Assembly (NCBI GenBank): GCA_944371445.1 | Contig: CALVXR010000094.1 | Span: 1-54,262, forward strand | Length of the DNA stretch: 54,262 bases | Origin: an uncultured Bacilli bacterium | GTDB taxonomy: Bacteria > Bacillota_I > Bacilli_A > RF39 > UBA660 | Direction: 5' to 3' | In this document: one piece after another, positions 8,921 to 19,270 of the stretch | How positions within the stretch are numbered: the stretch's first letter is position 1 | Layout of the letters: every line of letters begins with the position of its first letter | Translations under genes and position numbers: made by a program | Notes under the pieces: generated by a model | Seen by the model: only the letters and a program-made list of their open reading frames with translations | Database searches by the model: none | Told to the model about the DNA's origin: nothing

Positions 8921-9021
8921 TAAAAATTACTAAACAAAAAATATTATGTTATATAGTTAATAATAGGTAATTTGATAAATTATTTAAAAAATATTTATTA
9001 CATTATTAATAAATAAAATAT

Positions 9022-9058
9022 AAAACCCCAATTCAATCTAATATTGAATTGGAGTTTT
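9022..9058 (-). terminator. Strong hairpin terminator closing the Tad-like operon
   Basis: 10-bp stem CCAATTCAAT (9028-9037) / ATTGAATTGG (9043-9052) with a 5-nt loop. T-tracts follow on both strands. Confidence 0.7.
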
Positions 9059-9103
9059 AAACTTCTTACTACTTAATTTACTTAATTAAATTCAATAATT
9101 TTA

Positions 9104-10080: not shown

Positions 10081-10866
10081 TTATAATTGCATCATTGACA
10101 TCATAGAGATTAATAAAAGGACTAGAATTCCACAACCTGTTGTACATAACATCATCATTGTTTTATTTTCCATTTTTTCTAATCTCTCCTTATATTTTTG
10201 TTCACGAGCTTTATTTTGTAGTGATGAAACAGTTCTAGCAAACATCATCAATTGCTCTTGTTTATTTTCTTGTGATCCTAAACCTAAACGATATAATAAA
10301 CGCATCATACGCATTGAATCACGTACTGGATATTCTTTAGCAAAATCCATATATGGATCAACAGATGAGTCACCTGCTTCTATTTTTGCGATTAATTTTT
10401 TTAATCCTGGAACAAAAATTTTTGGAGCAGTTGCTATAGAACGATTTATAGCAACTGGAACTGTATAATGCTGTACTAAAATCTCTAGACTCTTTAAATA
10501 ATAAGGTAACATTTGATTTATTGTATGTAAATTTTTCTTATAAAAAGATTGTAAATCCATATATTCTAACTTAAATACAACAAATCCAATTATTATAGCA
10601 ACTAAAACAGTAATAAAATTTAAATTTGACATTGAAAATACAAATAAAGATACAACTATTGCCAATAACCCATTAGTTATTCTCTTATTAAAACTAACAT
10701 TTATATCTTTTGATTCACCATATTTTAAACTAAACAAAAATTTATAATCGTCTTCCATTAAAAATTTAAATAATGGTTCAACATCTTGAATAAATTTTTT
10801 AGCATCTATATTTTTATTGTAAATTAATATGAAAAGTGTAATTACTAATATTACTATAAATTCCAT
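10081..10866 (-). CDS. TadC-like platform protein (single T2SSF-type domain)
   Basis: 261 aa. TM helices flank a cytoplasmic helical domain. Its start overlaps the upstream stop (TAATG). It lies next to the CpaF-like ATPase and a second such protein, as TadB/TadC do. Confidence 0.65.
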   Translation of the reverse strand: MEFIVILVITLFILIYNKNIDAKKFIQDVEPLFKFLMEDDYKFLFSLKYGESKDINVSFNKRITNGLLAIVVSLFVFSMSNLNFITVLVAIIIGFVVFKLEYMDLQSFYKKNLHTINQMLPYYLKSLEILVQHYTVPVAINRSIATAPKIFVPGLKKLIAKIEAGDSSVDPYMDFAKEYPVRDSMRMMRLLYRLGLGSQENKQEQLMMFARTVSSLQNKAREQKYKERLEKMENKTMMMLCTTGCGILVLLLISMMSMMQL

Positions 10867-11771
10867 TATTCAGCACCTACATTCTCATTATAATATTTTT
10901 CACCATTTAATAAAAATCCAGTATTAATAATTATGATTAGGTGTAATATAACTTGTATATACCAACTTTTTAACATATTTATATATGTATCTACTCCAAG
11001 TAAAAATTGAACTAACATAACCATTAAATACAATACTATACCAAATTGTAAGAATTTTTTATGGAAAGTAGCTCTATCTACTCTATCACGATATACATTT
11101 TCAACAAGCATATCTATATCTTGTGACATATTTTCAAGGGCTTCTCCTGCATCCCTTGAACCCTCATTAGTAATTTGAGTAAATAATTGATGCATATTTT
11201 TTACAATATAAAAGTCATATTTATTATTCATATAAGAAATTGATTCATCAATAGATCCATTTTCATATGCTAAATCAATCATAACTTTTACATCACTACG
11301 TACAGGATCTTCCAAAACACCTGACTCATAAACTCCTTCTAGAGATTTTACAAATGATTGAGTAGTAGCAAATTCCATTATAGTATTAGTAGTATATATT
11401 TGTATTTGCTCAAATATATATTCACTATAAATTCTTTTACATCTAAGATAAGTTAAATATGGAATTACAAGAATAGATATAAACATATAAACAATAGAAA
11501 TAATAAGATTATAAAAATATAGATAAGTTATGATAAAAGCACCTATAGAAAATACACAAATTTGAATTGTATATTGTTTTTTCGTATATTCCTGTCCTAG
11601 TTCTTTTACTTTTTTCCTTATTTCTTTATATGAATAAGGCATATATTTTTCGTATAAAAATGATGTTTTTCCAGAAACATACTTATATACACTTTCACCT
11701 TTACTACTTCTTGATGCCCATATAAAGATAATTATCAAAATTATTAACAATAACACTATAAAATCTAACAT
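10866..11771 (-). CDS. TadB-like platform protein (single T2SSF-type domain)
   Basis: 301 aa. N-terminal TM, two central TM helices, a helical cytoplasmic domain (..NEGSRDAGEALENMSQDI..) and C-terminal TM helices. RBS AGAGGTGA. Confidence 0.65.
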   Translation of the reverse strand: MLDFIVLLLIILIIIFIWASRSSKGESVYKYVSGKTSFLYEKYMPYSYKEIRKKVKELGQEYTKKQYTIQICVFSIGAFIITYLYFYNLIISIVYMFISILVIPYLTYLRCKRIYSEYIFEQIQIYTTNTIMEFATTQSFVKSLEGVYESGVLEDPVRSDVKVMIDLAYENGSIDESISYMNNKYDFYIVKNMHQLFTQITNEGSRDAGEALENMSQDIDMLVENVYRDRVDRATFHKKFLQFGIVLYLMVMLVQFLLGVDTYINMLKSWYIQVILHLIIIINTGFLLNGEKYYNENVGAE

Positions 11772-11788
11772 AACATCACCTCTTATCT

Positions 11789-13204
11789 TTAATATTTATC
11801 ACTACTATCATTGTACATTGAAATATTGGTATTATTCACTTTATTAAAAATTTGATTATTATTAACTCCTATATTTTCTTGATTTGTCGGTATATTCTGT
11901 TTTTTTTCTAAATCTTGATTATTGTATAAATTATTCATAGGGATTGGTTGTTTATTTTGTACTTGAATATTTTGATTATTGTATAAGTTATTAGCAGGAA
12001 TTGATTGTCTACTTTGTGTTTGAATATTTAAACTACTATTATTTTGATTATTTGAAGTAGCTAAATCGTTATTCAAGAAAATATTATTAATTACAGGATT
12101 ATCTTTTTGTAAATTAACTTCTTGTGCAACAGAAGATACTTTTGTTTCTGATTCATTAATAAGATTTTCTGGCAAAACAACACCTTGTGCATCTAAATAA
12201 TCTATTAAATATTTAGATGGTTTTTTTCTTGTGACATGCCCTGTTGTTGTCTTTCTATAAATGACATTATACTCAGCTTTGTTATCTTCTGTAACATAAA
12301 ATTCTGTTACTTCTGCTATTTCTCTTCTAAATCTTTTTGTCTCTTTATCTTGATATCCTCTTATATATACACCTAATTGAACATATCTATAAATTGATTT
12401 TAAAAACTGGTCTATTTCTTGATTTGTCTCCAACAAACTATACATACGATTAGGTATAGAAGCAGCCTTATCAGCATGAATAGTTGATAAAATATAGTGA
12501 CCTGATGAAATTGAGTTTCTAACTGCTAAAACTGCCTCAGCACTACGAACTTCCGAAAGTAAAATCCATTTAGGATTTTGTCTCATACATGTTACTAAAA
12601 CCTCAGAATATGATGCTATATTATTAGTTTTCATTGTAACTATATCTCTATGTGGAAAAATTTTATCTAAATGAAGTTCAAGAGTATCTTCTATAGTTAT
12701 TATTTTTTCATTTTCTTTTGTATGAGCAGCTAAATATTTTATAAATTCTGTTTTTCCTGAACCAGTTTCACCACAGGCAATTATATTACAATGTCCTTGT
12801 ACACAATATATCAAAAAATCATGTATATCAAGATCAATATATTTATCTGCTAAAAGTTTATCTTTTTCTAGTCTTATTTTTGCTGGTGTTTTACGTATAA
12901 CAACTGCTATACCATTACGTGCAATAGATTCATGAACAAAATTAAGACGAAGTTCATCACCTTCGGCATCCAAAAATGGCTGAGCCATATTGAATGCCTT
13001 CCCCATAACATTTGAACATTGAAAAGCTAATTTTTCCATGAATGAATTGTTTATTTTTTCATCTTCTATTCTATATAAGCCTCTTGATAGTGTTTTAATC
13101 CAAACTTGTCCACCATTACTATATGAAATATCGGTTACATCATCATTTTCTAAATATGGTTTTAATGCCCCAAAATCTATTTGGGCAAACATTCCATCAT
13201 TCAT
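11789..13204 (-). CDS. CpaF/TadA-family (VirB11-like) secretion ATPase with an Asn/Gln-rich C-terminal tail
   Basis: 471 aa. Contains VTDISYSNGGQVWI, VIRK, Walker A GETGSGKT, ITIEDT.EL, MRQNP..ILLSEVRS.EA and GH..LSTIHA. The last ~110 aa are low-complexity N/Q-rich. Confidence 0.88.
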   Translation of the reverse strand: MNDGMFAQIDFGALKPYLENDDVTDISYSNGGQVWIKTLSRGLYRIEDEKINNSFMEKLAFQCSNVMGKAFNMAQPFLDAEGDELRLNFVHESIARNGIAVVIRKTPAKIRLEKDKLLADKYIDLDIHDFLIYCVQGHCNIIACGETGSGKTEFIKYLAAHTKENEKIITIEDTLELHLDKIFPHRDIVTMKTNNIASYSEVLVTCMRQNPKWILLSEVRSAEAVLAVRNSISSGHYILSTIHADKAASIPNRMYSLLETNQEIDQFLKSIYRYVQLGVYIRGYQDKETKRFRREIAEVTEFYVTEDNKAEYNVIYRKTTTGHVTRKKPSKYLIDYLDAQGVVLPENLINESETKVSSVAQEVNLQKDNPVINNIFLNNDLATSNNQNNSSLNIQTQSRQSIPANNLYNNQNIQVQNKQPIPMNNLYNNQDLEKKQNIPTNQENIGVNNNQIFNKVNNTNISMYNDSSDKY

Positions 13205-14513: not shown

Positions 14514-16958
14514 CTAATAACGGCATCCTTCAAATTCACTTCCTGTTTTTTGATAACATGCACTAGCATTTTTATCAACACCGTAAGCACCTGAAGGGTC
14601 TTTTAAAAATTCACTTAAACATTCTGAACCATCTTTTTGACCATTGATATTTTTTCCATAGCATTTTAAATTAAAATCTTGATATCCACCATATTTTAAT
14701 CTTGAACGATTATAGTTTATAATTGCTCTAGTATTTGCTGGTGTTAAGACAATTTTATATAATGGCTCTTTCTTACTATATACATCCTGTGGATTACTTA
14801 AACCTCTGTTATTCAATATTTTAGCTTTTACTAAATCTCTACTATTCCAATTTGCACCCGGATATCTACCATTTACATCTAAGTTAAATCCTGTAATTCC
14901 TGCTTTTAAATCTTTACTAGGAAATGGATTTCTAAGTGAAATAGTTCTATATATGATATTTAAATTTCCCCCTTCTGGATTTTCTCCAGATGGGCAAACA
15001 ATATCTTTACAATAATTTATAGCTTGTGATTCAGAAAAACCTTTTGCAATCATTTCTTCAACACATCCTGTAATATCCATCCATTCTGTAGTACCATCAT
15101 CTTTATTTCTTGGGCACTCATATTCTGGAGGATTTCCAGTACAATATTTATCAACACAACTTTGATATGTATTTCCTGCATTAACACATTTTTCAACACT
15201 TATATGTTGATAAGGTTCAGGACAATATTTAGGTTTATCTTCACATATTAAATCAGTTGGATCTAATGTTACATCATTACAATATTTTTCAATTTCTGTT
15301 GGACAATTTTCTCCGCCACTATTTGCTACTTTACACCATAAATCTTCTCCTGCATGTTCTGTTCCAGGTGGACAAATACATGGAGCTGGTTTATCATTGG
15401 TTACTTCGTAATTACATACATAATCTGATAAAGCATCATTTGCTACAGAATTAAATATTCCTTTTGAACCAATTTTAAAATCATATAATTGCATTGTTTT
15501 TTTACCAGTAATAGTTTCATTTAGTGATACAGGTAAAATTCCGTTATTGTATGTTATTATATCTTCATCATTTCCAGTTTTCTTACTAGAATATTTTTTA
15601 GTTGATGTATTGTAATATCTATATAATTCATCTGGTAATTTTAATGACACTTTTCTTTCAGCAATTAGATCTTCATCATATTTGTATCCTGTTAGATTGT
15701 AATATTCGTCTTTAGTATATACATGACCTGTAGAACTTTTAATATCTAGTGTTTCACTATCAAATTTGTATTCTTTGTCATTATATTTTATTTTAATATT
15801 TGTTTCAAAATTATCATATAATTCATCTATATTAGGAGTATATCCTCCACAAGAATTACCAACTTTTGTACATAACCTTCTACCAACTATATTTAACTGA
15901 TGTTTATCATTTATTGAAGTTCCAAATGATGGCCATATAAAATATCTACCTACATTTACAGCTGGAAGAACATTACCTGGAAGTTCCATCTCTACAGTTT
16001 CTCTACAATATATTTTACAATCAGAATTTACTTGTTTAACTAATCTTCCATATTGACTAGCATTTTCTACTTTTTCCCCAGAATCACAGTCTGTCTTTTC
16101 AAAAGTCTCGTAAAAATTTATTTTGTTTCCTTTGTTAGTATTTGTACATTTAAGTTGTCCTGGATTTGCTTTTGTAACAAATTTGTAACAACTATTAAAA
16201 ATTTTCTCTGGTGGGTTTATAATATTATAACCATAACCATGTCTTTGATCTGCTATTAAACTAACATCATTTGTTTGATTTTTTTGATGTGCAGTAATTC
16301 CTATATCATCTAAATCTGTACTTAATAATGTACTTTGATTTGCCCATCGATCTGGGTTTGAAGTACCACCATACTTTCTAAATACTTCTTTTATGGTCAT
16401 AAGTTTAAGCGCACCTGTTTTTGGTAAAGCAAACTGCCATATTGGCTCAATCAAAAACCTATAACCTTGACTATTATAATTTATTTTAGAATCAGATGGT
16501 AAAGTTAAAGAGGCAGGATTTACACCCATATCATCTAATAGCTCAAGTGAGTGTTCTTTTCCATCTTTTCCTGTATAATACTCTTTTAACCATGCATCAT
16601 CATAATAACATGGTTCATATGGTCCAGCTTTATCTTTTTTACAGGTATTTATATTTAAATTATAAATTACCTTATTACCACTTTTTTCAAGTAAATCTTT
16701 ATATTTAGTACTATTAACTATATATACAGGGTTACCAATCTTATTCCAATTAGTTCCATCATAGTAAATTAGCTCTATTTGTACAGCAGTAAAATGTGTA
16801 TTATCCCACGTACATGGATATTTAAATCTGGGACTACATGTACCTACACCTGGAACAGATCCTCCTCCGGTTCCATTATAATCTGCTTTTACTATTTCAA
16901 TATTAAAAGCACAAAATGTAATTAACATTACAAATACAATTTTAAAGTAATTTTTCAA
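14514..16958 (-). CDS. Large secreted cysteine-rich protein of unknown function
   Basis: The longest ORF starts with GTG at 16967. A TTG at 16958, 8 nt after GGAGG, is the likelier start and gives a Sec signal peptide MKNYFKIVFVMLITFCAFNIEIVKA. About 30 Cys in the mature protein, no C-terminal anchor, no family recognised. Confidence 0.75.
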   Translation of the reverse strand: MKNYFKIVFVMLITFCAFNIEIVKADYNGTGGGSVPGVGTCSPRFKYPCTWDNTHFTAVQIELIYYDGTNWNKIGNPVYIVNSTKYKDLLEKSGNKVIYNLNINTCKKDKAGPYEPCYYDDAWLKEYYTGKDGKEHSLELLDDMGVNPASLTLPSDSKINYNSQGYRFLIEPIWQFALPKTGALKLMTIKEVFRKYGGTSNPDRWANQSTLLSTDLDDIGITAHQKNQTNDVSLIADQRHGYGYNIINPPEKIFNSCYKFVTKANPGQLKCTNTNKGNKINFYETFEKTDCDSGEKVENASQYGRLVKQVNSDCKIYCRETVEMELPGNVLPAVNVGRYFIWPSFGTSINDKHQLNIVGRRLCTKVGNSCGGYTPNIDELYDNFETNIKIKYNDKEYKFDSETLDIKSSTGHVYTKDEYYNLTGYKYDEDLIAERKVSLKLPDELYRYYNTSTKKYSSKKTGNDEDIITYNNGILPVSLNETITGKKTMQLYDFKIGSKGIFNSVANDALSDYVCNYEVTNDKPAPCICPPGTEHAGEDLWCKVANSGGENCPTEIEKYCNDVTLDPTDLICEDKPKYCPEPYQHISVEKCVNAGNTYQSCVDKYCTGNPPEYECPRNKDDGTTEWMDITGCVEEMIAKGFSESQAINYCKDIVCPSGENPEGGNLNIIYRTISLRNPFPSKDLKAGITGFNLDVNGRYPGANWNSRDLVKAKILNNRGLSNPQDVYSKKEPLYKIVLTPANTRAIINYNRSRLKYGGYQDFNLKCYGKNINGQKDGSECLSEFLKDPSGAYGVDKNASACYQKTGSEFEGCRY

Positions 16959-17004
16959 ATGGTTCACCTCCCAATTATAACCATTAGTCTAATACCTTTA
17001 CACT

Positions 17005-17023
17005 ATTATAACACATTATACCA
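17005..17023 (-). promoter_or_regulatory. Possible internal promoter: two tandem extended -10 elements upstream of the Cys-rich gene
   Basis: The - strand reads TGGTATAAT (17023-17015) and TGTTATAAT (17013-17005), in the only sizeable intra-operon gap (16968-17050). Confidence 0.35.
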
Positions 17024-17050: not shown

Positions 17051-17689
17051 TTAAAACAATGAACTTTCTTTTTTTCTTTTCCAAATAATAAAGGAAATTA
17101 GACTAATTATAAATAATGGCAATATTATATAATAATAATTTAAATAGAATCTAAATAATTTATCATAAAACCCTAATTGTTCTTCTTTTTTATTATTTTC
17201 TTCATTATCTTTAAGGCTATTTTTATAATCTTCTACTAATTTAACTATCTCTTCCGCACTATAATTATATTTTGTCCATTTTTGACAAAATTTTTGTTCT
17301 TCTAAACCATTACAAATGGGATCTTTATACCATTTATTATATCCTGGAAACGTAAAATATTTAGATAATACATTACTTCCAGAGCAAGCTGGTAAATTTG
17401 AATAAAATTTAAATCTATAACTTTCATTTGGATTATATCCATACAATATGATTTCACTTGAAGAATAATAATATACATTTCCACTTCGTAAATCTTTAAA
17501 ATATAATAAAGGAGATAAATTAGAAATTATTAAATTATATTTTTCAGTATTTTCATCAAATATTGGTGTAAATTTTACATTACTTGCAAGTTTATTCATT
17601 TTCACTATTTCCTGATCTGTGCAAGATGCACTTACAGCATTAGGAAAAATAAATAACAAACATAGTAAAATAATTAATTTCTTTTTCAT
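17051..17689 (-). CDS. Secreted, C-terminally anchored protein of unknown function
   Basis: 212 aa. Signal peptide MKKKLIILLCLLFIFPNAVSA, five Cys after the signal-peptide region, and a C-terminal TM helix followed by KRKKE. RBS AGGAGGA. Confidence 0.7.
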   Translation of the reverse strand: MKKKLIILLCLLFIFPNAVSASCTDQEIVKMNKLASNVKFTPIFDENTEKYNLIISNLSPLLYFKDLRSGNVYYYSSSEIILYGYNPNESYRFKFYSNLPACSGSNVLSKYFTFPGYNKWYKDPICNGLEEQKFCQKWTKYNYSAEEIVKLVEDYKNSLKDNEENNKKEEQLGFYDKLFRFYLNYYYIILPLFIISLISFIIWKRKKESSLF

Positions 17690-17698
17690 ATTCTCCTC

Positions 17699-19270
17699 CT
17701 ATTTTAAATAATATTTGTAAATTTTTTCCCTTATATTAAATTCTATCCATATCCTGTTAGCATTTACTATATCTCGGTTCGCTTCTATATAATAGACATC
17801 TTTTTGATTAGTATCATTTGGAATAACATAATTAAAGTTATCTATACTATTTACTGAATTATTTATACTATAATAAATAACTCCATAATTATCAAGTAAG
17901 CTAACAAAATTATTTATTTTTTTATTTTTACTATCTAAGAAACTAGCTTCTATTTTAAGTAAAGCTTTATCTAAATTTCCAGAGAAAGATGGATATACAT
18001 ATTCACTTGATAATACACAATCATTTTCTTTAATACAATAATTATAATTATTTTTAAATATTGTATTTACTTGATATGAGTTGATTTTCAAAGTACCACT
18101 TTTTAATATTGTTTTACTTAAGTCTATTGAAGTACCTAAGTTTACCTCTTTAATTTCTGTTTCTCCTTCTACTTTTTCAGGATTTACTTTTATCTTTGTC
18201 TCCTTTATACCATCTTTTTTATAAACAATATACATATTATAATTTATAAAACTATTAGGTACCTCATAAATTAACATATATTCTACAGGATTATTATTTA
18301 TTTTTTCTTTATTATAACCTACCCCTAAATCATAAAATCTATTAATATAATTTTTATTATGGTAAAATTTTTGACCATTTATTTCTAATGGTAAAAAAGT
18401 AGGTTCCAAATATTCTTCTTCTCCAAACATATTATTAATACGAAAATTTATTAACACATAAGTTTTTAATTTGTTTTCGTTTCCATAAATATCTTTATTG
18501 GTATATAAACTACTATTAAATGTTACAGAAAAATTACCAATTTCAACATTTTCACCTAGTTTATAAACTTTATTAACTACTTTTATATTGAAAATAATTA
18601 AACCAAAAATTATTATAAATAAAGCAATGCTTGATATAGTTATTAACAATTTATTTTCAATAATAACATATTTAAGATTTCTTTTAAATTTATTTAAATT
18701 TCTTTTAAATTTACCTTCCTCAAATTCTACATTAAATTCAAATTCTTCATTATCATTTGCTTTAATATCTAAATCTTCTAGATCTTTTGAAAAATCAAAT
18801 TTTTTGAAATTAAATCCTATTCCTCTAATTATATTTATAACAGTACAAACACTTTGAAGAATTAACATTGTATTAATTAAATCTTGATTTAATTTTAAAG
18901 TACGCACATCTATTAAATTTATTTCAAGAGAAATAAAAGTATTTGTTACATAATAATATAAAATAATTGAAACAAAGCAGATCAATATACTTATAAAGTA
19001 AAAAGTTATAGGTTTTTTCTTATATCTCATTAATAAAAGTATAATTGTATAACCAATAATTAATAAAAATAGTAAGAAAATTATAACTATAGGAATAGTT
19101 TCTTTGACAAATTCAGGAGTCAATAGTGATACTGGTGAATCAATGTATTCATTAAAAAATAAAGATATGTTATATATTTTAAAAACAATATAACATAAAA
19201 TAGCACTAAATATTAAATGGATTAGCTTGAAATTCTTAATTAAAAACGCATATGGTTTTCTAAGTATCAT
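17699..19270 (-). CDS. Polytopic membrane protein with a large extracytoplasmic beta-rich domain (unknown function)
   Basis: 523 aa. About 4 N-terminal TM helices, a charged linker, one further TM, then a ~300-aa Asn/Tyr-rich domain. It is the first gene of the operon. RBS AAAGGGG. Confidence 0.7.
   Translation of the reverse strand: MILRKPYAFLIKNFKLIHLIFSAILCYIVFKIYNISLFFNEYIDSPVSLLTPEFVKETIPIVIIFLLFLLIIGYTIILLLMRYKKKPITFYFISILICFVSIILYYYVTNTFISLEINLIDVRTLKLNQDLINTMLILQSVCTVINIIRGIGFNFKKFDFSKDLEDLDIKANDNEEFEFNVEFEEGKFKRNLNKFKRNLKYVIIENKLLITISSIALFIIIFGLIIFNIKVVNKVYKLGENVEIGNFSVTFNSSLYTNKDIYGNENKLKTYVLINFRINNMFGEEEYLEPTFLPLEINGQKFYHNKNYINRFYDLGVGYNKEKINNNPVEYMLIYEVPNSFINYNMYIVYKKDGIKETKIKVNPEKVEGETEIKEVNLGTSIDLSKTILKSGTLKINSYQVNTIFKNNYNYCIKENDCVLSSEYVYPSFSGNLDKALLKIEASFLDSKNKKINNFVSLLDNYGVIYYSINNSVNSIDNFNYVIPNDTNQKDVYYIEANRDIVNANRIWIEFNIREKIYKYYLK

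Follow-up and report, generated by a model that had tools for sequence, protein, structure and literature searches.

Large non-pilin adhesins on type IV filament-like machines are already known, with PilY1 as one case and, by inference, the module of the plasmid pLS20 as another. PilY1/PilC proteins are Sec-exported, non-pilin tip adhesins of type IVa pili that are encoded together with pilin-like genes; they join a conserved C-terminal part to a variable N-terminal part, are thought to ride the filament via minor pilins, and are not disulfide-rich. TIEpLS20, the product of pLS20 gene 34, was shown experimentally to be a 778-amino-acid (aa) secreted class II thioester-domain adhesin that is required for conjugation in liquid medium and that carries a signal peptide, lacks a sorting signal, and has no known means of anchoring (PMC8092201). 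Genes 36 and 38–40 of the same plasmid are described as “unknown” and gene 37 as “putative VirB11” (PMC8557374). The present analysis concerns a secreted cysteine-rich (Cys-rich) protein encoded on a 54,262-nucleotide stretch of DNA from an uncultured Bacilli bacterium (contig CALVXR010000094.1; the whole stretch is called the window below). Its gene is the third in a ten-gene, same-strand cassette, and the protein is a fixed component of this conserved Tad-like cassette, which is found in gut and rumen Bacilli with small genomes. We estimate at roughly 55% the probability that it is a disulfide-stabilized adhesin or cargo displayed by a Tad-like filament machine.

A fixed component of a Tad-like cassette

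Close relatives of the window genome share its ten-gene cassette in full, as well as the chromosomal surroundings, and relatives at 27–30% identity retain the same core order. Among the 63 species loci that have both a called open reading frame (ORF) of the family and a downstream gene, the next gene encodes a DUF5411 protein in 57 and the previous gene a relative of the window's 212-aa protein in 51. Within the taxonomic family of the window genome, DUF5411 was found in 23 of 24 genomes; in this same sample, the match to the Cys-rich protein ends just upstream of DUF5411 in each of the 16 genomes that have one, and a slot in which no sequence match remains still holds a secreted protein of 800–1296 aa with 26–49 Cys. 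An earlier note, made from the letters of the window alone, had placed the gene inside a pilus-like operon and raised the prospect that homologs recur at other Tad-like loci. Both points hold up, since homologs occupy the syntenic loci of relatives. Because the cassette is flanked by housekeeping genes (FtsH, TilS, KsgA, WhiA, Lgt, a pseudouridine synthase, and a P-type ATPase), the locus is chromosomal.

The machine that accompanies the Cys-rich protein includes an ATPase that in NCBIfam comes closest to the models for VirB11 and TadA, reaching the cut-off of neither, and whose best sequence matches in the Protein Data Bank (PDB) are FlaI, CpaF, and VirB11. The proteins at the TadB and TadC positions match nothing in Pfam or NCBIfam, T2SSF included, and are 70–83% conserved among relatives. 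The likely major pilin, a 77-aa Flp-like protein with six Cys that begins MKESAG/EANITV (here and below, a slash marks the cleavage site, which in this case is predicted), is encoded elsewhere in the genome (G000 C99:11025-11258). Beside it lies a 344-aa gene that is called TadZ-like from its N-terminus and position only; the two genes fall within C99:9905-11258. In most relatives the pilin and TadZ-like genes follow the TadC-like gene within the cassette; here they stand behind a small helix-turn-helix-type gene on C99. A prepilin peptidase (Peptidase_A24) is encoded at C43:286-615.

The partnership between the Cys-rich protein and DUF5411 also recurs in rearranged forms. At L027:2283-10845 (genome G021) and at L084, tandem copies of a module comprising the 212-aa-like, Cys-rich, and DUF5411 genes precede one CpaB/ATPase set. 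The Cys-rich proteins of L027 have diverged (830 aa with 47 Cys and 800 aa with 37 Cys), and its two DUF5411 copies agree in all of their first 30 residues and have identical profile scores. Such tandem modules look like alternative cargo cassettes. At L031:3640-5991 (G022), DUF5411 is joined to an extension of 650 aa that contains 49 Cys and CxxC-rich repeats, and at L036:7051-8577 (G024), in another genus, to a VanY/M15-like domain, called by eye from the motifs SAHNTGCAVDV and EWWHY.

The gene itself is a genuine minus-strand ORF at 14514-16967, where the plus strand is stop-rich. The earlier note had read it as a protein of 817 aa; the ORF stands and the length probably does not. The 817-aa form starts at GTG 16967. 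As that GTG falls inside a GGAGG Shine-Dalgarno site (16971-16967), the TTG at 16958 is preferred as the start, and the resulting 814-aa form is identical to a database cluster member (P0002). Residue numbers in this text keep the 817-aa numbering of the mechanical ORF from GTG 16967. The signal peptide proposed in the same note is likewise borne out: the protein begins with a signal peptide that runs to IEIVKA/DYNG, its cleavage site is kept in relatives as VKA/xYNG, and beyond it there is neither a further hydrophobic segment nor a recognizable anchor.

Conceivably, the protein could be associated with the wall on its own account, sharing the operon of the machine without depending on it. 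Export by Sec needs no special exporter, some paralogs lie outside cassettes, and in the window's clade the gene may possess a promoter of its own. Two overlapping elements upstream of the gene, TGGTATAAT and TGTTATAAT, are of the TGnTATAAT type and are each accompanied by a weak −35 element; across the AT-rich region, promoter-like matches are not above shuffled controls (74 found vs. 91.7 expected). Upstream of the gene, an enlarged gap of 62–116 base pairs (bp) sets apart four loci, those of the window and of its three nearest relatives, and three of the four gaps hold a TGnTAnAAT element; a clade-specific internal promoter is plausible on this sequence pattern. In the other 47 of 51 loci, however, the gap to the upstream gene is at most 24 bp or the two genes overlap. 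This spacing, along with an adjacency to DUF5411 that persists at identities down to about 25%, argues against independence from the machine, which we regard as very improbable.

The family to which the protein belongs is undescribed in the literature searched and unannotated in databases. Even at E ≤ 10, scans against Pfam, NCBIfam, and PHROGs gave no match to the Cys-rich protein or to any of 17 relatives, and nine long family members are likewise devoid of a Pfam domain. A word-indexed search of 5.8 billion proteins returned 14 close relatives, or 72 when residues 500–817 served as the query, while an exhaustive search produced 272 cluster representatives at E < 1e-3, of which 125 also scored E < 1e-30. 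The 161 members retrieved are all Cys-rich (1.4–6.8% Cys) and range from 294 to 2044 aa (mostly 800–1350), and nearly all of the full-length ones start with a signal-peptide-like N-terminus. In a collection of species-representative genomes, a member occurs in 64 species, all of them metagenome-assembled genomes from the gut or rumen of human, mouse, rabbit, chicken, or deer, and labeled Bacilli, Bacillales, Tenericutes, Firmicutes CAG:884, CAG:822, or Ca. Coprosoma. A sample of 400 genomes from across the phylum gave matches in two taxonomic families only, that of the window and one other, and neither the Cys-rich protein nor DUF5411 found a match by tblastn in 72,556 plasmids.

Two side observations concern the ATPase and other pilin-like proteins. 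The ATPase ends in a repetitive, asparagine/glutamine-rich C-terminal tail of about 110 aa (11789-12130), which is absent from the 368–372-aa orthologs at L022 and L023. Separate from the cassette, the genome also encodes at least 10 large proteins (about 350–774 aa) with a classical type IV pilin leader, KGFTLIELLAVI..., on the contigs given in Table 1; for giant proteins of this kind, the set is unusually large.

Cysteines that behave as pairs

The protein contains 31 Cys, of which C19 lies in the signal peptide, leaving 30 in the mature chain. Fifteen are packed into residues 518–658, between DYVCNYE (DNA 15425-15405) and KDIVCPSG (15008-14985), in a module that includes the motifs CICPPG, YCPEP, CVDKYC, and NYCKDIVC. 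These counts reproduce those of the earlier note, which had given an even number of about 30 for the mature chain and about 15 for the module, and its view that such density is unusual is confirmed by the genome at large (1.19 Mb, 25.5% GC, 91% complete). In a crude whole-genome ORF set, Cys account for 0.99% of residues in all ORFs and 0.74% in signal-peptide-only proteins, compared to 3.8% in the Cys-rich protein, which has the highest Cys count of any ORF in the genome. By our own arithmetic, a stretch of 141 residues would be expected to hold about 1.4 Cys, versus the 15 found (Poisson P(≥15) ~3e-11). Extreme Cys contents are also seen in small ORFs, one in the same genome (C78:385-807; 140 aa, 15 Cys) and one in a relative (L036:137-610; 157 aa, 18 Cys).

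Conservation of these residues is pronounced. Among eight full-length homologs 27 Cys are invariant, and those of the C-terminal half are retained in 89–100% of 195 members. Across the same 195 members, Cys are lost in pairs, most clearly 109-120 (phi 0.81), 44-52 (0.63), and 530-555 (0.61), and more weakly 604-609 (0.49), 769-783 (0.43), and 545-575 (0.34). Members with the YNG-type mature N-terminus (xYNGxGG) have an even number of mature Cys in 48 of 50 cases (p = 2e-12, for parity groups that were defined after the sequences had been viewed and for related sequences that are not independent). Their counts range from 24 to 86, a span that implies many separate gains and losses that preserved parity. 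A second group, about a third of the family, has a Cys no more than 12 residues away from the cleavage site (for example P0011, P0028, P0035, and P0042, and loci L041, L044, and L054); here the total is odd in 55 of 62. Both of the motifs FC[LIM][DN] and AQxAxW occur in 22 of this group, 20 of them odd. As these are motifs of thioester domains (TEDs), the odd class can be read as “all paired plus one thioester Cys” and the even class as “all paired.” This contrast in parity, even beneath YNG heads and odd beneath thioester-type heads, constitutes a simple sequence-only test that can be reused by others.

Together, these observations establish that the family conserves its Cys and that they behave as pairs. 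CxxC motifs are absent from the protein, in which close Cys spacings run from C-x1-C to C-x10-C. Parity, pairwise loss, and the lack of CxxC favor disulfides over metal sites, and we infer that all 30 mature Cys would form 15 intramolecular disulfides. Of the options listed in the earlier note, a disulfide-knotted module thus gains support from the family-wide even parity and the pairwise co-loss, while a metal-binding module, of which neither feature is expected, is disfavored. A module that binds metal (Zn or Fe–S clusters) and forms no disulfides would be in keeping with a reducing, anaerobic habitat, and the habitat is likely anaerobic gut or rumen; the moderate confidence with which the module is modeled, and the failure to find a DsbA/DsbB-type system, point the same way. 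Metal sites nonetheless fail to account for even counts over such a range or for losses in pairs, there are no CxxC/CxxH knuckles and no conserved His partners in the invariant columns, and exported CXXC thioredoxins are present whose genes adjoin the cassette in relatives. A metal-binding role is hard to credit on this balance.

How the disulfides would be made is a related matter. DsbA (PF01323), Thioredoxin_4 (PF13462), DsbB (PF02600), VKOR (PF07884), and CcdA/DsbD were not found in the 91%-complete genome, by searches each of which picked up its family in control genomes. The BdbD/DsbA-like oxidoreductase whose co-occurrence the earlier note had thought worth checking was hence not found in the genome, and exported thioredoxin-fold CXXC proteins are found instead: a membrane-anchored double thioredoxin with CGYC and CSHC sites (C28:2592-3386) and a lipoprotein-like CSHC thioredoxin on contig C78. 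In four other genera, an exported thioredoxin gene stands divergently beside the first cassette gene. This gene neighborhood offers a circumstantial tie between exported thioredoxins and the cassette. Since no DsbA/DsbB-type system was found, the exported CXXC thioredoxins are proposed as the catalysts or proofreaders of the disulfides. Firmicutes have been reported to keep cysteines out of their exported proteins, and an even-number Cys bias has been taken as the sign of a working disulfide-forming system (Daniels et al., PMC2823432). The present family runs against the exclusion, yet shows the bias.

Domain architecture and likely function

An AlphaFold2 (AF2) model built from a 77-sequence alignment (predicted local distance difference test score, pLDDT, 80.8; predicted template modeling score 0.52) resolves four parts, namely a “YNG head,” a middle beta-rich domain, the Cys-rich module, and a conserved C-terminal domain (Table 1). 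In the model, a disordered Gly-rich linker (residues 22–40) leads into the alpha/beta head (about 45–255), and at the other end a small alpha/beta fold is predicted for the C-terminal domain. When sub-profiles of these parts were searched against the 195 family members, the C-terminal domain was present exactly once in 193 and the middle domain in 189; the Cys module was detected in 181, 60 of which have two or three partial copies, and the YNG head in only 39. In the distant cassettes L022 and L023, the head is 6–8% identical to that of the window, compared to 41–43% for the C-terminal domain and 32–45% for the Cys module. The head domain is thus exchanged between lineages while the C-terminal domain is retained.

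The same polarity is visible in the cassette as a whole. Between the window and four relatives (L001, L003, L022, and L023), identity amounts to 74–79% for the ATPase, 70–83% for the TadB-like and 70–76% for the TadC-like protein, 54–75% for the CpaB-like protein, 64–68% for DUF5411, 44–61% for the pilin-like proteins, and 35–51% for the 212-aa and 523-aa proteins. At 28–44%, versus 64–83% for the machine core, the Cys-rich protein is the fastest-evolving in the cassette. A conserved base beneath a fast-changing, exchangeable head is the pattern that a surface-exposed binding protein would be expected to show.

In the reading that we prefer, Sec would export an anchorless protein made up, behind its signal peptide, of the variable YNG head, the beta-rich middle, the Cys-rich module, and the conserved C-terminal domain. 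Fifteen disulfides would rigidify it outside the cell, with exported thioredoxin-fold CXXC proteins catalyzing or proofreading their formation. The C-terminal domain may then dock the protein onto the machine via DUF5411, the anchored 212-aa partner, and/or the pilin-like subunits, leaving the variable head as the putative ligand-binding end. That the conserved C-terminal domain is poorly modeled as a monomer would fit a domain that folds against a partner. The “tip adhesin” of the earlier note survives in its second word: context, evolutionary rate, thioester-type head swapping, and the pLS20 analogy point to an adhesin, while a location at the tip is not borne out.

The retention of a single C-terminal domain beneath variable N-terminal parts could have a different cause. 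Export signals are often distributed in this manner, and the domain would be the recognition signal of a released substrate if the machine worked as a type II secretion pseudopilus, expelling a folded effector, toxin, or enzyme through the wall. The missing anchor and the extra paralogs outside the cassette in some genomes agree with such a role, and operons with DUF5411 have been predicted to be “secretion-related” in the only paper of the literature searched that mentions DUF5411 (Miller et al., PMC9523054). A freely released product is nevertheless difficult to reconcile with the approximately one-to-one association with DUF5411 and the 212-aa protein or with the DUF5411/Cys fusion, both of which imply a stable complex. 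Moreover, the searches detected neither a family nor a fold of enzymes or toxins, and there are relatives with thioester-type heads, a kind known from adhesins (PMC8092201). Release as a secreted substrate is accordingly unlikely.

A structural role deserves the same scrutiny. The protein is encoded shortly before the CpaB/RcpC-like gene, belongs to nearly every cassette, and combines conserved C-terminal with variable N-terminal domains as secretins do; a collar or conduit across the cell wall, the monoderm counterpart of the secretin/RcpA layer, would also benefit from disulfides in a rigid extracellular ring. Such a part would hardly be the fastest-evolving protein of its cassette, however, nor would one expect it to exchange whole heads, thioester-type ones included, to vary in size and in Cys number from 24 to 135, or to be duplicated in tandem with DUF5411 in some genomes. 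No secretin or other structural family was detected. We judge this possibility quite unlikely, placing it behind release as a substrate.

Structure comparison returned little for any of these proposals. Foldseek of the full AF2 model found nothing in PDB or BFVD at E ≤ 1e-3, a PDB sequence search with the family profile gave nothing meaningful, and one with the head profile gave nothing at E ≤ 10. Hence the AlphaFold and Foldseek comparison suggested in the earlier note turned up no homology to an unrelated enzyme or adhesin.

Several points weigh against a displayed adhesin or cargo. Among solved or viral structures, no relative was detected for the head or for the whole AF2 model, and a binding function is for this reason argued from context; adhesion, a surface or tip location, and contact between the C-terminal domain and the machine are all reached by indirect inference. 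The C-terminal domain, highly conserved as it is, is modeled only at pLDDT 40–84. Foldseek of the DUF5411 model returned nothing significant, with faint NTF2/VirB8-like matches at probabilities of 0.04–0.35, and its putative cleavage site has a Gly that varies among homologs, leaving a pilin identity unsupported; DUF5411 may be either a pilin or an assembly protein. Some family members lie outside the cassette (L059, L066, L069, L071, L073, and L091). The resemblance to pLS20 genes 36, 38, 39, and 40 is weak (DUF5411 aligns with p36 at an hhalign probability of 1.3%), and the Cys-rich protein is not homologous to TIE, in that tblastn against the plasmids gave nothing. The organism is probably an anaerobe, which sits uneasily with the oxidizing power that 15 disulfides would need, and the caveats on the parity groups given above belong here as well.

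A broader proposal is that the cassette represents an uncharacterized Gram-positive display system of anaerobic gut Bacilli, in which a machine similar to Tad and to pLS20 p36–40 would present anchorless adhesins with swappable heads, docked by their C-terminal domains and stabilized by 12 to more than 40 disulfides that exported thioredoxins would form in place of DsbA/DsbB. This generalization is tentative, and the odds are somewhat against it in full. Were display by the machine true, it would define the cargo of a widespread, unstudied surface machine of uncultured gut and rumen Bacilli, and it would suggest that anchorless adhesins such as TIEpLS20, for which anchoring is in question (PMC8092201), are presented by the adjacent VirB11/CpaF module. 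It would further provide a counter-example to the exclusion of Cys from exported Firmicutes proteins (PMC2823432), and would cast exported thioredoxins as oxidative folding catalysts in bacteria that have no DsbA/DsbB.

Table 1. Features of the cassette and of related loci. Positions without a prefix refer to the window; the others are given with their contig or locus. TM, transmembrane.
Feature	Position	Strand	Remarks
523-aa protein, first cassette gene	17699..19270	minus	about 5 TM segments and extracellular beta-rich domain
212-aa upstream partner	17051..17689	minus	signal peptide, 4 mature Cys, C-terminal TM anchor
Two overlapping extended −10-like elements	17005..17023	minus	TGGTATAAT (17023-17015) and TGTTATAAT (17013-17005), in the 83-bp gap upstream of the Cys-rich gene
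Shine-Dalgarno GGAGG	16967..16971	minus	8 nucleotides upstream of TTG 16958
Cys-rich secreted protein gene	14514..16958	minus	TTG start 16958, 814 aa; stop codon 14514-16
Sec signal peptide	16884..16958	minus	cut after VKA (residue 28), IEIVKA/DYNG
YNG head, residues 29-255	16203..16883	minus	Gly-rich linker, then alpha/beta domain, pLDDT >90
Middle beta-rich domain, residues 256-515	15423..16202	minus	pLDDT mostly >85
Cys-rich module, residues 516-662	14982..15422	minus	mostly short helices, pLDDT 60-85
Conserved C-terminal domain, residues 663-817	14517..14981	minus	4 Cys; IIYRTISLxNPFPSK, GRYPGxNWNS, YNR..GYxDF
DUF5411 protein, 137 aa	14086..14499	minus	N-terminal membrane helix, then small alpha/beta domain; constant downstream neighbor
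CpaB/RcpC-like protein, 283 aa	13210..14061	minus	
CpaF/TadA/VirB11/FlaI-clade ATPase, 471 aa	11789..13204	minus	T2SSE domain
Two polytopic membrane proteins, TadB and TadC positions (301 and 261 aa)	10081..11771	minus	
Two pilin-like paralogs, 159 and 158 aa	9104..10071	minus	leaders MKQSIG/TTF and MREAIG/QTF; 2 Cys each
Terminator-like hairpin	9021..9059	minus	17-bp stem, closing the operon
Giant pilin-like proteins	G000 contigs C3, C6, C12, C35, C45, C47, C81, C84, C91		
Thioredoxin genes beside the cassette in relatives	L025:10046-10531; L036:2212-2694; L032:3666-4124; L033:11862-12314		

Comparison with known systems

Tad/Flp systems (type IVc pili), exemplified by Caulobacter Cpa, Aggregatibacter Tad, and Bifidobacterium breve Tad, share with the window the CpaF/FlaI/VirB11-clade ATPase, the CpaB/RcpC-like protein, two polytopic proteins at the platform positions, and pilin-like minor subunits, as well as the Flp-like pilin and prepilin peptidase encoded elsewhere in the genome. 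Flp leaders are of the type G/xxxxEY, from which the pilin leaders compared here (MKEAAG/EAN, MREAIG/QTF) differ. To our knowledge, no described Tad system contains a large Cys-rich secreted protein, DUF5411, or the 523-aa and 212-aa proteins. Identity of the Cys-rich protein with a known Tad component (RcpA, TadD, TadG, TadE/F, or TadZ) was considered and rejected, there being no similarity to these in Pfam, NCBIfam, or PDB.

Genes 34–40 of pLS20 follow an order shared with the window's cassette: first a large secreted anchorless protein, next a small one with an N-terminal TM segment, then an ATPase of the CpaF/VirB11 type, a pair of polytopic membrane proteins, and finally a small pilin-like protein. 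Among plasmids, the window's ATPase finds its best matches on pLS20-family Bacillus plasmids, at 30–33% identity. On one plasmid, pBamB1895, five cassette proteins each best-match their positional counterpart downstream of a 767-aa TIE-type adhesin, in a phmmer comparison with a 16-protein database. The ATPase pairs with the CpaF/VirB11 protein (1.6e-50), the TadB-like protein with a 267-aa protein (3.5e-5), the TadC-like protein with a 243-aa protein (6.3e-5), DUF5411 with a 128-aa protein (4.6e-4), and a pilin-like protein with a 120-aa protein (1e-3). Given the 16-protein database and the weak hhalign score, homology of the small parts is suggestive only. The two arrangements also differ in setting, the window's cassette being chromosomal and the pLS20 module part of a conjugation operon, and unlike the latter the former includes a CpaB-like gene, the 5-TM protein, and the 212-aa partner.

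The large secreted proteins of the two modules are built differently. TIE comprises a TED and CnaB-type stalk domains and has a single Cys, whereas the Cys-rich protein has a novel head and 30 Cys. An hhalign comparison gave a match of 19 columns only, between the NPFP region and DDPFP near the TIE C-terminus, which is not significant (E = 0.32). As a side observation, the C-terminal domain's IIYRTISLxNPFPSK, which no other motif of the family exceeds in conservation, weakly resembles P[IV]..D[DN]PFP.G.P.GW near the C-termini of anchorless TIE proteins (L101:7198-7557 and L102–L105), and the [DN]PFP motif occurs in four of five TIE C-termini; a C-terminal domain shared with TIE is an unproven hint.

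With PilY1/PilC, the Cys-rich protein has in common that it is Sec-exported and non-pilin, that its C-terminus is conserved and its N-terminus variable, and that it is encoded beside pilin-like genes. Membership in the PilY1/PilC family was rejected, as there is no Pfam match, no predicted beta-propeller, and no similarity in sequence or fold, and the likeness is a functional analogy only.

Thioester adhesins enter the comparison through the relatives. The Cys-rich protein itself does not qualify, as its 30 mature Cys are even in number, which would leave none unpaired, against the odd counts of TED-motif relatives noted above. The YNG head was also considered as a degenerate TED and rejected. 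It carries neither the Cys motif [YFL]C[ILMV][DENQ] nor the Gln motif (T/A)QxA(I/V)W, has no Pfam match at E ≤ 10, and aligns with the TED-type heads of relatives at an hhalign probability of 0.06%; although the head is modeled at a pLDDT above 90, no TED is found among the 50 best Foldseek matches of the full model in PDB, all of which have E > 0.01. Relatives on the same chassis do, on the other hand, possess heads with FC[LIM][DN] and AQxAxW, akin to the class II TIE adhesins SaTIE, BaTIE, and EfmTIE86, and the only PDB match of their head profile is the SaTIE TED (6fx6, E = 0.022). The YNG head is therefore a domain distinct from the TED-type heads and so far unrelated to them, though mounted on a common chassis. 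A disulfide-stabilized protein displayed by a Tad-like machine would parallel both the anchorless TIE adhesin that stands ahead of the pLS20-type module and the non-pilin adhesins of the PilY1 type.

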